A DNA stretch of 64,000 nucleotides from Flavobacteriales bacterium (GCA_018057455.1 JAGPDT010000001.1:55956-119955), one strand, 5' to 3'; counted from the first letter of the stretch, positions 46,481 to 55,433 are shown. Notes: generated by a model not told the origin, from the letters alone. Numbers and translations: made by a program.

Positions 46481-46631
46481 GGGGCATGTACGTGAAGCGA
46501 GGTAGGGAGCGCAATGGAAGATGGTTCCGCCCTGCACCGGGGTTCGCTTTGCGTGGGCGGGGCCAGTGACTAAATCGAAAAAGACCATTGGTCCCTGCAC
46601 TACCCGTACTTTGAACCGCGTTTTCCACCGC

Positions 46632-46787
46632 ATGAGCCCAACCCCCGAACAACAAGCCCGCGAACGCATCGATGCGATGCTCACCGCGTCCGGCTGGGCC
46701 GTGCAGGACAAAAAAGCCCTGAACCCCGCGGTGGGCCGTTTACGGCAGGCGTTTTTGGAGCGGGCATTTGAGAGGAGGTTGGGGTGA
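46632..46787 (+). pseudogene. Remnant of a restriction-enzyme R-subunit N-terminus (HSDR_N-like; 51-codon stub)
   Basis: MSPTPEQQARERIDAMLTASGWAVQD matches the E..R..ID..L...GW N-terminal signature of type I/III restriction R subunits. It terminates after 51 aa with no helicase or nuclease body. Confidence 0.4.
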
Positions 46788-46790
46788 GGT

Positions 46791-47749
46791 ATGGGTACGC
46801 TTACGTCATATAAGTCTATCGAGGAGAAGCAGGCGGTCTTCACAAATTGTGTCTTCTGCGACACCGAGAAGGATATACGCGACTGGCTCACTGGTATTGG
46901 TGAAGGAAGCTTAAATGGTGTTGGCATGGCATTCCGCGGACTTACACGCGGCAGTTACAAGCTGTACAGCAGCTTGCAGCGAAGCTGGGTTGAGCAAGAC
47001 TTGGCTTTACACCAACAGAACCACAAGGGTATTGTACAGCGCATCCTTGATGAAGCTTTTGAACAACGTGTGAACGGTACATCACTCGTGAATGGAGAGC
47101 GTGACGAGCTTGCAATGTTGTCCTACTTGCAGCACCATGGCTGCCCAACGCCTTTCCTTGATTTCACTTCGGACGTACGGGTGGCTTTGTTCTTTGCCAG
47201 TCAGGAGCCGAAGGGGGCTGGAAATGGCAGTGAGCTTGACAACTACTTCTCAATCTCATCCATCGCGAAATTGTGGATGCCATGAACTCAGGCTTGGCGA
47301 AAGCATGGAGAGAATGCGATTCTGGACATAGGGCGGAGGCTGCACAATGGTTCCGGTCTTATGAGATGAACGCCTTGCAGGATACGCTCATCTTCGAAAC
47401 GCAGTGGATCAACCGGAACTATGGAGGGGGCGTTGTGAGCTTGGATACCTCGGATCGCTTCAGGCGCCAGGCTGGATTGTTCGCGATGAACAACACAGCA
47501 GACCTGCCATTCCCTGAGGCGGTTCATGCATTTGTTGATGCACGTACGAACGATGTGCGGGAGCAGCGTTCGGTCCGAACGTGGATTAATAGCCTGAACA
47601 TCCATCGAAACTATGCGGGGCTGGTCACGTCTTGGCTGAGCAGCCAGGATCCCCCTATAACGGAAAATTATCTGCTTCCGGTACAAGAGAATGAGGGTTG
47701 GATATGTGACATCTTCGACCGCATGTTGGGGAACTGCTCACGTGAATGA
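46791..47749 (+). pseudogene. FRG-domain protein gene interrupted by a frameshift near 47273-47285 (two track ORFs, 46791..47285 and 47273..47749)
   Basis: FRGLTRGSYKLYSSLQR (the FRG motif), LQHHGCPTPFLDFTSD (resembling the HyG.PT.LLDwT motif) and RFRRQAGLFAMNN (the R..Q.G.F motif) are spread over two overlapping frames. GC is lower than in flanking DNA. Confidence 0.55.
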
Positions 47750-47766
47750 TGGAACTGAATTGTTGA

Positions 47767-50700
47767 ATGAATAACAAGATCAACCAAGACGACCCCGCCG
47801 TAAGCAACGCCTACGACGCGTTGAAGAACACGGCGGACAAGGTGATGCAGGGCCTGGAGAAGGTCCGTGAGCACCAAGGAATAAACCGGCGCCGGTGGCT
47901 GTGGGAACTGGTGCAGAACGCGAAGGATGTTCCGAACCGTTTCGGCCAGGTGTCCATCAAGATTGTGCGTGAGCCGGACCTACTCACCTTCGCCCACAAC
48001 GGCGATCCCTTTCAGGTGCGCAATGTGACCGCCCTGATCAACCAGGTGAGTTCCAAGCCCTCGGACAGTATCGATGCGCAAATCACCGGCAAGTACGGTA
48101 CGGGCTTCATCAGCACGCACTTGCTGAGCACCACCATCGAGGTAACAGGCGTGATCCATCGGGAAGGCCGACCAGCCAAGCGGATGCACTTGATGCTGGA
48201 CCGTGAAGGTACCCGCAGCGAGGACCTTATCCCGAAGATTGAAAATGCCAGGGCGCTGGTGGAGCGGATTGACACTGATGCCGCCTTTGAGGATATGCCG
48301 GACTACGATACACAACGCACGGAGCAGAGCTTTGATACGGTTTTCACCTACCCATTGATCACCGAGGATGCCCGTTTGGCCGCTTCGGATGGTTTGGCCG
48401 ATCTGGTGAACACGCTACCGTATACCCTCGGTAACCTCGCCAAGGTGAAGCGGCTTATCGTGGAGGACAGTGTAAAGGGGCAAACGCTGGACTACCGGTG
48501 CAAGGTGGTGGCGAACGATGGCTCCATTCGTAAGTTGTGCATGAGCGCCGGGGAGCAGGTCATTGCCCACTTCATCTCATACGGCAAGGACAACTTGACT
48601 CTGACCGTGGAGGTGAATGGGTTTGAGCGGCCCAAGCTGAAGGCCAACTTCGGGGAGCAACCAAACCTGTACCGCGACTTTCCTCTGATCGGGTCCGAAA
48701 AATTCCACTTCCCCTTCATCCTGAACAGCGTAGAACTGTACCCCAACGAGGAGCGCAGCGGCATCTTCCTGAACGCTGCCGGTACCAGCCATGTGGCCAC
48801 CAACCGGCAGGTAATAGAACGCGCGATGGATTTGGCAGTGGAATTCGGGCAATGGCTGGCGGAACAGGGCGCAAGCAATTTGTATGTAGCGGCGTACAGC
48901 CGTCTGCCTGGCGTGAATATGGACCCCAGCGCCATGGAGTGGTACCAAGAGCGGCAACGGAACTGGCGTGGACGAATACTAAAATTGCCTTTAGTGGAGA
49001 CCACCGCTGGCACCACCATCGCTCTGAAAGATGCGATCATTCCCAGGCATGGTCCTGAAGGCATGGCGAACGCGGTTCTGTGGGAATTGGTGGTGGCCTT
49101 TCATGGACGAGGACGGCTTCCACGCAAGGATCTTCTCGCCCCATGGCTGAAAGCCCTGGGCCCCATGGAGGAATCCGATTCTTGGAATCAAGGCGCCACC
49201 CTTATCCAGGGTTTGGAAGATCTGTTCAAACATGTAGAAAGCAAGGGAGCGCTGGAGGCCTTGGTCTTGGAACCCTGGCCGGAAGGCGTAGCCCATTCGC
49301 CTGTTGACTGGCTTAGTCGGCTGTTCCGGTTCGCCATCGAGCAGAAGGAAGGGGAATTGCTGGACAAGTATGCCGTGGTGCCGGACCAGTACGGGCGCTT
49401 TCACAAGCTCAGCGAACTCTACCTCGAAGACATAGAGGCCCGTATACCGGACGCGGTCCTGGATGTGATGAAGAAGCTCGGTGCCGATTGGCGAGCCCTG
49501 CTGATCCACCGCAGTCTGGATCTGGATCAAAAGAGCCATAAGCGCTGGGGGCTGGCGGATGCATCCAAGAAGGTGACCGAGCTGCTGGGTGGTGACCTCG
49601 CCGAGCAGGCGACTGGTACGACATTTACCGGCAGGACCGATGCGCTGGACATTCTATTCGAACTGATCGCCATCGTTCCTACGGGAGGTCGGAAGGGCTT
49701 TCGCGCTTCACTCTTCAGCAACGGTTGCAGCTTCTTCCAGCGCACTGGGGATTTGAACGAGACAAGCGGTTGTTCTGACTTCAATTTTGCGCCCGCTATA
49801 CGCCTACTCCTGCAATTCATCCATAATCGCATCACTGAATGCAGCAACATGGATGGACTTGCCCTTTTCATGGCCGTTTCCAAGGACCAAGCTGTTCTGT
49901 GGCTGGATAGACACCTGCGCTCCCTTGTTGGACATGATGAGTACAAGGCCTTCCTTGAGCGCGGGAATATCATACCCAACCGGTATGGTGAGCTAAAAGG
50001 TTACGATGCTCTCTACAACTACGGGACCGAGGACCAACCCATGGATGCCGACCTAGTCGAAGTGCTCAAGGAACTCGATGATGCACAGGATTGGAACAAG
50101 GTGCTTGTAGGTGATGACATTGGAATATCTCTGAAGGAGACCCGCTCGATGCTCCAGCTCGGTAAGGCCATCGATGATCAGGTGGCCCAGATTTGGGGCA
50201 AGGCAGCCTCAGAACCGCAGATCCTTGAGGAGAGGCAAGCCACGCTAGTGGCGCTCATCGATTGGTGCAATGCGAATGAGGACGATGCCAACCGCTTCAT
50301 GCCCGGCTTCATGCAGATCAAGGACAAGCTGTCCTTTGACCTCATTATCCGGCCGAACCTGTCCAGCGGTGTCATAGGTCTACTCGGGGACAAGCGGTAT
50401 GGTGCCGTGCTGCAATCCATCCAAAGCCGTGGCTTGGATGTCGGAAAGGTCAAGGAGTTACTGGAAATCACCGGCGCGTTGGGCTCCTTGGACCCAATCA
50501 TCAATAGGGCAAAGGAGATGCTGGAGGAAAAGCAGGACCTCGAGTACAAGAAGGAGTTAGGGGAAGGCATGGAGAAACTGCTGAAGGAGGCGCTCGATGC
50601 AGAAGGCTTCCAGACGCACGTCCAAGGCATCGGCGATTATGACATATCGGTCACCAATCCCGCGAACGGCAAGATGTTCTACATTGAACTCAAGTCGGTG

Positions 50701-51042
50701 GCGGCCGGGTCGAAGGCCCCCTTGAAGCTGGCCCCGTCACAAGCGCAGGTATGGAAGACTGATGCGCGGGATAGGGCACTGTGCCTTATTGAACGAGGAA
50801 CTACAGCCTCTCCTGCTACCATCGCCTACATTATGCAACAGTTGCGCACAAGGCAAGGTCTTTCCGGTGATCTTGCGGCTGGCAACGCAGCCTTGGGCAC
50901 ATTCCAGATTTTACAGCATGAAAGTAATCTCGACTTTCAGCTCTTGGGCGATGTCAGGGTACGCCTGGAGCAACATCGGTTTATGCAAGGGGCGGTCGAT
51001 TACGCTAAGCTTATCGAAGCAATCAAGAATGCGATCAGTTGA
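47767..51042 (+). CDS. Large GHKL/Bergerat-fold ATPase (sacsin/Hsp90-like N-terminal domain) fused to a C-terminal PD-(D/E)xK nuclease of the NOV_C/DUF3883 type (bacterial NO VEIN-like protein); candidate single-protein defence factor
   Basis: The N-box RRWLWELVQNAKDV, G1-like FAHNGDPF and G2 box TGKYGTGFIS are present. The C-terminus has GIGDYDISV...KMFYIELKSV, giving a D...(D/E)xK signature. Length is 1091 aa, with lower GC than the chromosome backbone. Confidence 0.7.
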   Translation: MNNKINQDDPAVSNAYDALKNTADKVMQGLEKVREHQGINRRRWLWELVQNAKDVPNRFGQVSIKIVREPDLLTFAHNGDPFQVRNVTALINQVSSKPSDSIDAQITGKYGTGFISTHLLSTTIEVTGVIHREGRPAKRMHLMLDREGTRSEDLIPKIENARALVERIDTDAAFEDMPDYDTQRTEQSFDTVFTYPLITEDARLAASDGLADLVNTLPYTLGNLAKVKRLIVEDSVKGQTLDYRCKVVANDGSIRKLCMSAGEQVIAHFISYGKDNLTLTVEVNGFERPKLKANFGEQPNLYRDFPLIGSEKFHFPFILNSVELYPNEERSGIFLNAAGTSHVATNRQVIERAMDLAVEFGQWLAEQGASNLYVAAYSRLPGVNMDPSAMEWYQERQRNWRGRILKLPLVETTAGTTIALKDAIIPRHGPEGMANAVLWELVVAFHGRGRLPRKDLLAPWLKALGPMEESDSWNQGATLIQGLEDLFKHVESKGALEALVLEPWPEGVAHSPVDWLSRLFRFAIEQKEGELLDKYAVVPDQYGRFHKLSELYLEDIEARIPDAVLDVMKKLGADWRALLIHRSLDLDQKSHKRWGLADASKKVTELLGGDLAEQATGTTFTGRTDALDILFELIAIVPTGGRKGFRASLFSNGCSFFQRTGDLNETSGCSDFNFAPAIRLLLQFIHNRITECSNMDGLALFMAVSKDQAVLWLDRHLRSLVGHDEYKAFLERGNIIPNRYGELKGYDALYNYGTEDQPMDADLVEVLKELDDAQDWNKVLVGDDIGISLKETRSMLQLGKAIDDQVAQIWGKAASEPQILEERQATLVALIDWCNANEDDANRFMPGFMQIKDKLSFDLIIRPNLSSGVIGLLGDKRYGAVLQSIQSRGLDVGKVKELLEITGALGSLDPIINRAKEMLEEKQDLEYKKELGEGMEKLLKEALDAEGFQTHVQGIGDYDISVTNPANGKMFYIELKSVAAGSKAPLKLAPSQAQVWKTDARDRALCLIERGTTASPATIAYIMQQLRTRQGLSGDLAAGNAALGTFQILQHESNLDFQLLGDVRVRLEQHRFMQGAVDYAKLIEAIKNAIS

Positions 51043-51155
51043 ACAAGCCGGAACGCCGTGGATTCTTATGTTCTTAACGTCCGCCCACGTGTGCTGTGCA
51101 AGGCGTGCAAGGTGTGCGGCCATGGAAGACCTCCTCGCCAGACTTGCCTATCCCA

Positions 51156-52295
51156 TCACCGGTACTTGAACCAGGCCGCCATGAAGGGATTGTACGGTGC
51201 GTAAACAGGCTTTCCGGATTCGGCAGCGTGTTCGGTGATGTAGATCAGCTCGCGATCAAGCAGGGCTTGGAGGGCATGCACCAAGGCGGCCGAGGAAGGC
51301 AGGTTGTACTTCCGGGTGAAGGCCGCGCCCGTGGGGGTGTCCACCTCGCCTTCGCGGGAGATGGCGGCGAAGAGGTCCCACTGGTTGCGCGTGAGTGCGC
51401 TGCGCAGCGTGGCCATGATGGCATCCTGCTCGCGCACGATGGCCAGCAGCGAACGCACCACCGTGTCGCGGTCCAGTGTTGCGGAATCGCCGAAAAGGCG
51501 GTTGAGGAGCACTTGCATGTAGTAGGTGTGGCCCCGGCACAGGTCGTAGCAGAACAGGGCCTCCTCCTTTTTCAGGGAGCGGCCATGGCGCTTCATCAGG
51601 TGGGGGGCAAAATCCGCATATGTGGCGCGGTCGATGCGCTTGAGCTCGACCTGGTCCGCGCTGCCATAGAACGGATTGGCGGCGTTGTTGAACAGGTCCA
51701 GCAGGATGTGGCGCTGGCTGCCGGAGAAGATGCAGCGCACCTTGGTGCTGCGCTGCAGCTCGGTCCGGAGCAGCGCGTCCATGCGCGCCTCCTGGAAGGT
51801 CGCGATCTGCTGGAACTCGTCGATGGCCAGGAAGATGGTGCGGTCCTGCTCGTTGAGCACGCGGAAGATCTCCCGCGTGGTGGCTGCTTCCTGCCGGTGG
51901 CTGCTGCGTTCCAGGCTGATGCTCGGGCTGCCCGTCAGCTCGTCCATGCTCACCACCGGGCGCAGGGCGGAGAACCAGGCCATCACGTTCTTCAGGAACT
52001 GCTTGGGCGTGGGGTTGAGGGCTTGGTGTACGGCGTTCAGCAGAATGGTGTTGAATTCATGCACGTCACGCGCCGCGTAGATGTCGGCGAACACGGTCCG
52101 CGCGCCGCGCACCTTGGACAGCCCGTGGAACACATGGTGGATGAGGCCCGTTTTCCCATACCGCCTGGGGCTGTACAGCATCACGTGCCGTCCGTTCCGC
52201 AAGGCGGACGCGATGGTCCTCGTTTCCTCCTCCCGGTCGCAGAAGAAGCTTGGCCCCATGTAGGCGTTCACGGCGAACGGGTTGTCATCGGTCAT
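51156..52295 (-). CDS. AAA-type ATP-binding protein (archaeal-type ATPase PF01637 plus DUF234 architecture)
   Basis: FFCDREEETRTIASALRNGRHVMLYSPRRYGKTGLI is the family N-terminal signature with a Walker A motif. Walker B is IFLAIDEFQQI. Length is 379 aa. Confidence 0.75.
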   Translation of the reverse strand: MTDDNPFAVNAYMGPSFFCDREEETRTIASALRNGRHVMLYSPRRYGKTGLIHHVFHGLSKVRGARTVFADIYAARDVHEFNTILLNAVHQALNPTPKQFLKNVMAWFSALRPVVSMDELTGSPSISLERSSHRQEAATTREIFRVLNEQDRTIFLAIDEFQQIATFQEARMDALLRTELQRSTKVRCIFSGSQRHILLDLFNNAANPFYGSADQVELKRIDRATYADFAPHLMKRHGRSLKKEEALFCYDLCRGHTYYMQVLLNRLFGDSATLDRDTVVRSLLAIVREQDAIMATLRSALTRNQWDLFAAISREGEVDTPTGAAFTRKYNLPSSAALVHALQALLDRELIYITEHAAESGKPVYAPYNPFMAAWFKYR

Positions 52296-52687
52296 GGCAG
52301 CGAAGTTAGGTCATCTTACTAAGAATAGTTTAGTAAAGATTACTTAGTAAGTAGTTTTTATTCAATTGAATGGGCGCCGGATGTTGCCGCCAAGGATGAT
52401 CGGTTCGCCCGGCACACGGTCCAGGTGGGCCGGATAGGACGAAGGCTGGAGCTTCAACCTCCGCCAGGGACGGCACGAAGCGGAACGTGGCTTACCAGGG
52501 CCGTTCGGGGCTTTTGGGCATTTCAACACGTCCTTTGGTCATCCTTCGTACACTTGCTTGGCGATTACCCCTTTGGGTTTTACGGGAGCGGACCTGATGA
52601 AGGTCGGGGTTTCCGAGCCCACTGGGGGATCGTCTTTTATCACAGGGCCTTATCAGTACCCCCTTGGCCCTGCGCCTCCTTCAGTGA

Positions 52688-55433
<2,746 letters not shown>

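Follow-up and report, generated by a model that had tools for sequence, protein, structure and literature searches.

A 64,000-nucleotide (nt) stretch of DNA from a Flavobacteriales bacterium, analysed here at its full length and referred to as the window, carries at positions 47767 to 51042 of its plus strand a gene, tmtA, for a protein of 1091 amino acids (aa) in which a sacsin/Hsp90-type ATPase domain is joined to a C-terminal nuclease domain. The best overall explanation, and one that we consider probable, is that this gene is a horizontally acquired short-form TmtA that serves in anti-phage defence. We are highly confident that tmtA belongs, as a short form, to the TmtA family; TmtA is the sole protein of Tiamat, an anti-phage system. 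An anti-phage role of the copy in the window is likely, and ATP-gated DNA cleavage, proposed by analogy, is a tentative suggestion that could well turn out otherwise.

The tmtA open reading frame (ORF) is complete, from an ATG start to a stop codon included in the coordinates above, and its position, strand and length in the ORF list are exactly those given in an earlier reading of the window (the original prediction). The PADLOC TmtA profile PDLC03967 matches residues 8-1090 over profile positions 6-1060 of 1063 (E 2.3e-190, 633.5 bits), and six further TmtA profiles of PADLOC match the N-terminus (E 6e-13 to 7e-7). DefenseFinder would probably assign the gene to Tiamat as well. The gene is thus of a defence type that already has a family name, not a new kind of system: the architecture and the defence reading of the original prediction stand, and its implied novelty does not. 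The protein is the short Bacteroidota subtype of the known TmtA family. Homologs form at least 538 clusters at 90% identity, are typically ~1085-1110 aa long, and are named by NCBI either 'sacsin N-terminal ATP-binding-like' or 'DUF3883 domain-containing' proteins. A partial protein in the nr database (P0003), labelled 'Flavobacteriales bacterium', is 100% identical to the window protein, a label in keeping with the type IX secretion genes found upstream of tmtA in the window.

Conservation was assessed by aligning 45-51 homologs that are 34-80% identical to the window protein. All motifs quoted in the original prediction were found, namely RRWLWELVQNAKDV at residues 42-55, FAHNGDPF at 75-82 and GKYGTGF at 108-114 in the N-terminus, and GDYDIS at 956-961 and FYIELKS at 971-977 in the C-terminus. 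Given the invariance of residues in these regions across the family, their presence in the window protein is not due to chance.

The N-terminus is a sacsin/Hsp90-type Bergerat ATPase domain, as had been proposed from its motifs; the assignment is now backed by an NCBIfam sacsin model, by relatives that match Pfam models and by the predicted structure. The ATP-binding core (47890 to 48144, residues 42-126; this and all other features within tmtA lie on the plus strand) is defined by a match to NCBIfam NF047352, P_loop_sacsin (73.7 bits against a cut-off of 50), together with the invariant motifs. Motif I, ELVQNAKD (nt 47905-47928), invariant in 51 sequences, has the ExxxNAxD form of GHKL ATPases, read as E47-L-V-Q-N51-A-K-D54. 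Motif II is of the sacsin type, HNGDPF (residues 77-82), within FAHNGDPF (nt 47989-48012). Motif III is GKYGTGF (nt 48088-48108). Invariant residues comprise R43, W44, W46, E47, L48, Q50, N51, A52, K53 and D54 in and around motif I, H77, N78 and F82 in motif II, and G108, K109, G111, T112, G113 and F114 in motif III. The canonical GHKL motif II, DxGxG, is absent from the window protein, its Asp being replaced in the 51 homologs by the invariant N78. When sacsin is compared with Hsp90, the position of Hsp90 D79 is conserved in sacsin without being invariant (PMC9880540). The window protein shows this same pattern, in which the Glu, the Mg-binding Asn and GxxGxGF are kept and the position of the adenine-contacting Asp is looser.

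The resemblance extends beyond the nucleotide-binding core. An Hsp90-like N-terminal domain and the start of a middle domain (47842 to 48780, residues ~26-338) were recognized by Foldseek and hhalign. A full-length AlphaFold2 (AF2) model built from 51 sequences reached a mean predicted local distance difference test (pLDDT) score of 84.8, and all 50 matches listed when it was compared with the PDB by Foldseek belong to the Hsp90 family (TRAP1, Hsp90, GRP94, Hsc82 and HtpG). The best match had an E value of 1.9e-8 and a probability of 1.00, and the alignments, 400-800 columns long, covered the ATPase domain and an Hsp90-like middle region. Within this region the invariant R330 (nt 48754-48756) is a candidate catalytic-loop arginine and, by analogy, could plausibly correspond to Hsp90 R380 and sacsin R474, the arginines used for comparison (PMC9880540). 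Profile searches gave less. The check with HATPase_c and HATPase_c_3 suggested in the original prediction returned no Pfam match for the window protein; HATPase_c_3, a model that also covers MORC, matches 13 of 45 relatives. A Pfam scan of the whole window protein had no match at E<=0.1, and sequence searches of the PDB with the window protein, the 51-sequence profile and a C-terminal profile gave nothing meaningful.

Set against the Hsp90 family and the SRR/SIRPT modules of sacsin, TmtA has in common a Bergerat fold followed by the start of an Hsp90-like middle domain, as well as the catalytic Glu, the Mg-binding Asn, GxxGxGF and an invariant Arg located in a loop that follows the ATPase domain. 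It differs in that identity is only 9-12%, and in having neither the Hsp90 C-terminal domain and MEEVD tail nor a DnaJ/HEPN module. Because the ATPase of TmtA is fused to a nuclease, a nucleic-acid output is implied rather than protein folding.

The C-terminus (50491 to 51039, residues ~909-1091) is, on the predicted structure, an Hjc-like PD-(D/E)xK domain of the NOV_C/DUF3883 kind, for which nuclease activity is predicted. Anantharaman et al. (2013; PMC3710099) presented DUF3883 as a novel restriction-endonuclease domain. The structure prediction called for in the original prediction was informative: a separate model of residues 900-1091 (pLDDT 88.4, predicted template modelling score 0.81) matched nuclease folds, and the full-length model placed the putative catalytic residues classically. 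E936 (nt 50572-50574) lies in the helix formed by residues 909-945, D959 (nt 50641-50643) precedes the second core strand (960-963), and E974-x-K976 (nt 50686-50694) is in the third core strand (970-978). In the model, the E...D...ExK arrangement of the PD-(D/E)xK superfamily is therefore intact. Invariant residues of the domain are E936, G956, D959, E974, K976, S977 and Q992. When the isolated window domain was compared with NOV_C (PF13020), the other profile check that had been proposed, residues 951-1002 aligned with profile positions 24-73 of 91 at 15.3 bits (E 0.022), below the gathering threshold of 22.1. The same profile passes in 11 of 45 relatives when whole proteins are scanned (E<=0.01), and matches 22 of 28 relatives when the C-terminal domain is scanned alone. 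The relatives and the predicted structure together sustain the nuclease assignment of the original prediction.

The folds of the junction resolvases Hjc and RecU are among those closest to the nuclease domain. With these, with fusellovirus D212 and with type II restriction endonucleases, the TmtA domain shares the core fold and the E...D...ExK arrangement; identity is only 9-16%, and the TmtA nuclease is distinct in being the C-terminal module of a 1091-aa ATPase.

Between the two domains lies a central region of ~540 residues with mixed alpha/beta structure (48865 to 50490, residues ~367-908). It is confidently modelled, with pLDDT values of 80-95 in most 10-residue blocks, varies more across the family than the ATPase core, and has no Pfam or NCBIfam family match in the window protein. 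It occupies the place of the longer, DUF3684-annotated region of the verified long-form TmtA. DUF3684 itself was undetected in the window protein (Pfam, E<=0.1) and in 45 relatives (E<=0.01). The most variable part of the family is found past the nuclease core, at residues 1001-1091, with an entropy of 2.3-2.6 bits (alignment A1). In two relatives, P0006 and P0010, these residues are 46-48% identical to the window protein versus 55-83% elsewhere in the protein, a pattern in the sequences that hints at a separate exchange of the C-terminal tail. A single hypervariable specificity region was considered and rejected, entropy being fairly even outside the ATPase core.

The link to phage defence comes from the long form of the family. 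Two Tiamat candidates, both annotated 'Hsp90, DUF3684, DUF3883', were tested by Millman et al. (2022; 10.1101/2022.05.11.491447). TmtA of Bacillus cereus FORC_005 (IMG 2641244160; 1590 aa) is marked there as a verified anti-phage system made of a single gene, and the same table has an 'x' for that of Enterobacter (1429 aa). The statement in the original prediction that no function had been defined experimentally for bacterial counterparts is thus outdated. Bacteroidetes are numerous in the family table of that study, with Algoriphagus resistens, Saprospira grandis and a Pontibacter species as examples (10.1101/2022.05.11.491447). The same taxa yielded short-form homologs of ~1100 aa in our searches, and Table S20 of Millman et al. 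very probably counts the short form as TmtA too.

Our comparison with the verified B. cereus protein covers its first 399 aa. BLASTP gave 33% identity over 87 aa (E 3e-5), a segment that spans all three ATP-binding motifs and in which motif II reads ANNGNPF. Profile alignment with hhalign of the short-form family against a relative that is 53% identical to the verified TmtA extended the similarity to columns 29-343 (~315 residues; E 6.9e-6, probability 84.5%) and aligned the FPF...R motif, R330 included. The two forms are alike in being single genes, in their Hsp90/sacsin-type ATPase motifs (ExxQNAxD, hNGxPF and GxxGTGF), in the FPF...R middle-domain motif and in a C-terminal DUF3883/NOV_C nuclease. 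They differ in length, 1590 versus 1091 aa, and in DUF3684, which is undetectable here. When the 399 residues of B. cereus TmtA were used as a query, only proteins of 680 aa or less were returned. Some of them, such as P0152 (680 aa, from a cluster of 79 sequences), combine SACS (PF25794) and NOV_C in one protein, which suggests an even more compact sacsin-ATPase and nuclease layout, though gene fragments may be among them.

Our literature search turned up no mechanistic study of Tiamat. Reviews give its mechanism as unknown, and one preprint places Tiamat among single-gene PD-(D/E)xK systems. Its neighbours vary across 10 independent tmtA loci, none of them being conserved, and DNA and protein homology to the loci of relatives (80%, 68% and 63% identity) ends at the borders of the tmtA ORF, so tmtA is a stand-alone, single-gene system without a conserved partner. 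The original prediction of a stand-alone gene in defence-type surroundings is upheld by these loci, whose neighbours differ and are mostly rich in defence genes or mobile elements. The guanine-plus-cytosine (GC) content of tmtA is below that of its surroundings in 10 of 11 loci. In the window it is 0.559, against 0.633 in the remainder, so the gene does have the low GC that had been claimed for it. The dip runs from ~46.65 to 51.15 kb (0.49-0.59 in 300-nt windows) and spans tmtA together with an upstream gene encoding an FRG domain. The best explanation is that the gene was gained horizontally and occupies a defence slot of variable content in a Flavobacteriales genome.

These features are consistent with the following sequence of events. 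ATP binding would bring the N-terminal domains of a TmtA dimer together, as in Hsp90, MutL and MORC. This clamp-like closure, which might be triggered by invading DNA or by an infection cue, or might license recognition of either, would position or activate the paired C-terminal nuclease domains. These in turn would cut DNA and stop phage replication. As no methyltransferase or other partner is needed, discrimination between self and non-self must lie in the ATPase and central regions.

A comparison with a syntenic locus, L023, bears on which part of the protein determines specificity. L023 encodes a TmtA (P0011) that is 52% identical overall to that of the window, and its left flank consists of a ribonucleotide reductase, a type IX secretion system cargo gene, PorP/SprF and a stump of hsdR, at 83-89% DNA identity. 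By blastn the two loci are 88.8% identical up to position 46777 and 94.6% identical over 50524-52372, on the side of an ATPase_2 gene. The block in between (46778 to 50523), which holds the FRG gene and tmtA codons 1 to ~919 and corresponds to positions 7966-10772 of L023, is essentially unalignable, with just two patches of ~140 nt at 70%. At the protein level the window TmtA and P0011 are 34-54% identical over residues 1-900 and 87-97% identical over the last ~190 residues. The FRG gene and the whole non-nuclease part of tmtA have thus been exchanged by recombination at a fixed slot. The right-hand crossover falls at the boundary between the ATPase region and the nuclease domain, and the window TmtA is a natural chimera.

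This exchange, and the Hsp90-like fold, could also be read in terms of abortive infection, in which the Hsp90-like module would sense a phage protein as its 'client' and ATP-driven closure would free the nuclease on host and phage DNA alike, killing the cell. In structure, the module comes closest to protein chaperones, and MORC or MutL is named in none of the 50 listed matches; there is no modification partner at tmtA loci to mark self DNA; and the swapped block is the entire non-nuclease part, as expected if that part sets what is sensed. Client binding, on the other hand, is conjectural, nucleic acids are an equally plausible target of sacsin/NOV-type ATPases that are fused to nucleases, and the observations fit direct defence as well as cell-death defence. 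We regard client sensing with cell death as possible, at perhaps one chance in a few, and keep the ATP-switched anti-phage nuclease as the preferred explanation.

A chimeric gene might instead be a decaying or non-functional one. The mosaic structure of tmtA, the split FRG neighbour and an hsdR cut down to ~34 codons are all compatible with decay. Yet the 1091-codon ORF is intact, and the window protein carries every one of 80 family-invariant positions, a set defined with the window sequence in the alignment. Moreover, AF2 models the junction with confidence, and the junction coincides with a natural domain boundary. Decay of the window copy is therefore very unlikely.

The hsdR stump raises a further issue, the relation of tmtA to type I restriction-modification (R-M) systems. 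TmtA lies within or directly against a type I operon in 4 of the 10 independent loci. The order is hsdR-hsdS-tmtA in L006 (3784-11282) and hsdM-hsdS-tmtA-hsdR in both L021 (3106-14297) and L025 (3410-14274), and in L026 (3191-18463) the gene is located between hsdS and hsdR. In the window, a 5' remnant of hsdR is preserved upstream of tmtA on the plus strand (46641 to 46731, within ORF 46521-46787). It matches the start of the intact hsdR of L006 at 85.7% identity over 91 nt and in 28 of 34 residues, and so is the vestigial restriction-subunit N-terminus that the original prediction had recognized; it is regarded as context and not as part of the system. The same stump of ~34 codons is present in L023, suggesting that an ancestral hsdR-hsdS-tmtA cassette, as in L006, later lost its type I genes.

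From such arrangements it could be argued that TmtA is a guard or accessory of type I R-M, in the manner of PrrC, that works with or monitors the type I enzyme and fires upon phage anti-restriction. PrrC lies inside EcoprrI. The four embedded loci and the stump directly upstream in the window and in L023 speak for such a role. However, TmtA-carrying type I operons also hold unrelated cargo, including DarTG (DarT-Macro), GmrSD, DUF3644 and AAA_11/12 helicases, TmtA is also present in loci without type I genes nearby, and in the window the type I system is deleted while tmtA is intact. The verified B. cereus TmtA, too, is listed as a single gene, and the constructs of Millman and colleagues reportedly carried candidate systems alone. 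A guard function is accordingly quite improbable. Type I operons of Bacteroidota appear instead to act as landing pads for defence genes. The presence of independently acting defence genes inside such operons is a known general phenomenon (10.1101/2024.04.04.588119), and with unrelated cargo in the same operons we read the embedding of tmtA as this general hosting tendency and not as evidence of coupling. TgvAB, from VPI-2 of V. cholerae, is a parallel case of defence genes in a type I R-M operon, comparable to the TmtA homologs found repeatedly between hsdS and hsdR. Neither TgvAB nor PrrC has sequence or domain kinship to TmtA, which also occurs without a type I enzyme.

A broader version would combine both sets of observations. 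TmtA would be a modular sensor-effector in which codons 1 to ~919 are swapped and the nuclease is resident, and carriage in type I operons would reflect functional coupling, for example as a PrrC-like guard. We consider this combination improbable. If it were true, Tiamat would be the first Hsp90-type 'client-sensing' immune nuclease, and the recurrent hsdS-tmtA-hsdR order would be explained.

The two-domain layout that the original prediction likened to the plant NO VEIN (NOV) family holds, with relatives of the window protein matching PF13020. NOV is a eukaryotic nuclear developmental protein. By Pfam names and literature it shares with TmtA a sacsin-like ATPase and a C-terminal NOV_C domain; the window protein differs in scoring below the PF13020 threshold, and no orthology is implied. 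In plant-associated metagenomes, every match to Tiamat hidden Markov models mapped to plant genome sequences (PMC12409356). Such matches presumably are cross-detections of NO VEIN-like genes, a caveat for metagenomic counts of Tiamat. The shared layout and these plant matches, along with two homolog loci that have mostly housekeeping flanks and nuclease folds close to Hjc and RecU, could be taken to mean that TmtA is a housekeeping factor for DNA repair or chromosome organisation, like eukaryotic NO VEIN or MORC-type proteins. This we consider extremely unlikely. The position of the gene is not conserved across the loci of relatives that were examined, its GC content is atypical of the host, its alleles are exchanged at a fixed slot, most contexts are rich in defence genes or mobile elements, and an anti-phage phenotype has been verified for one member of the family.

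Several points weigh against a phage-defence nuclease switched by ATP. The only verified TmtA is a 1590-aa long form whose DUF3684 is undetectable in the short form, and, with ~400 of its residues compared, it is just 33% identical to the window protein over 87 residues. The anti-phage role of the short subtype is presumed by extension from the long form, and we read the 'x' of the Enterobacter protein as no defence seen. The window protein fails the Pfam thresholds for HATPase_c_3 and NOV_C, and two homolog loci have mostly housekeeping flanks. Motif II has Asn78 where canonical GHKL proteins have Asp, so that, judging from sequence, ATP hydrolysis is putative even where ATP binding is predicted. 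Finally, dimerisation, DNA binding and the trigger are proposed purely by analogy.

Of the genes around tmtA, two were considered as partners and rejected. The FRG-domain gene, a PADLOC candidate (PDC-S15) on the plus strand at 46791 to 47749, was set aside because it is missing from L023 and every other tmtA locus examined. The domain is present as had been described (PF08867, E 2.9e-15), although not as the single gene implied, being split into two overlapping ORFs (46791-47285 and 47273-47749). Profile PDLC04932 (324 positions) matches the first over positions 2-162 and the second over 241-310, collinearly and in different frames, and the first ends where a 418-aa relative reads on. Either the gene is a frameshifted pseudogene or the assembly contains an error near 47270-47285. 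The second candidate, an ATPase_2/AAA gene on the minus strand (51156 to 52295; PF01637, E 3.7e-10), is convergent with tmtA. It has a host-like GC content of 0.637, belongs to the resident flank and was found only in the window and in syntenic L023. It had been named a 'DUF234 ATPase', and the ATPase part is correct; no DUF234 domain was detected.

Just beyond the upstream end of the ATPase_2 gene, the AT-rich junction noted in the original prediction is indeed seen as an AT-richer stretch with a near-perfect 18-nt palindrome (CTTACTAAGAATAGTTTA / TAAAGATTACTTAGTAAG; 52315-52351). It is near position 52372, where similarity to L023 ends, and possibly marks the site of a recombination or an insertion. 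A second patch of lower GC content (52.05-53.7 kb), in which L023 synteny ends, holds an ORF on the minus strand (52688-53671) whose match to Phage_Mu_F is confined to the final ~37 positions of that profile and which also has a weak match to a PBECR2 nuclease-toxin domain; from its sequence it looks like a 5'-truncated remnant of a MuF toxin. A search for island boundaries was negative: the window lacks tRNA genes, the segment around 46.5-53.7 kb has no convincing direct or inverted repeats flanking it, and the neighbouring genes scanned from 45.3 to 53.7 kb include no integrase. A scan for sigma-70 promoters and terminators, which does not cover Bacteroidota promoters, gave one promoter-like site versus 2.5 expected and one terminator-like site versus 5.7.

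TmtA can also be placed among the GHKL ATPases of conflict systems. Prokaryotic MORC/paraMORC and MutL-type GHKL ATPases are said to have been linked to restriction systems by Iyer, Abhiman and Aravind in 2008. These proteins and Mza resemble TmtA as conflict-system GHKL ATPases that presumably act as dimerising switches and often lie beside R-M genes. They are multi-gene systems, unlike stand-alone TmtA, and none of the 50 PDB matches listed was named MORC or MutL. No S5-fold domain was identified in TmtA, no specific examination for S5 having been made.

The swap at a domain boundary and the embedding in type I operons provide testable hints on which part of TmtA determines specificity and on how the gene spreads. 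With its compact 1091-aa form, a confident model, and E47/N51 and E936/D959/E974/K976 as defined positions, the short form is a convenient subject for the study of how an ATPase controls a nuclease. How an ATPase of the Hsp90/sacsin type exerts such control is a question of relevance to eukaryotic NO VEIN and sacsin-like proteins too.

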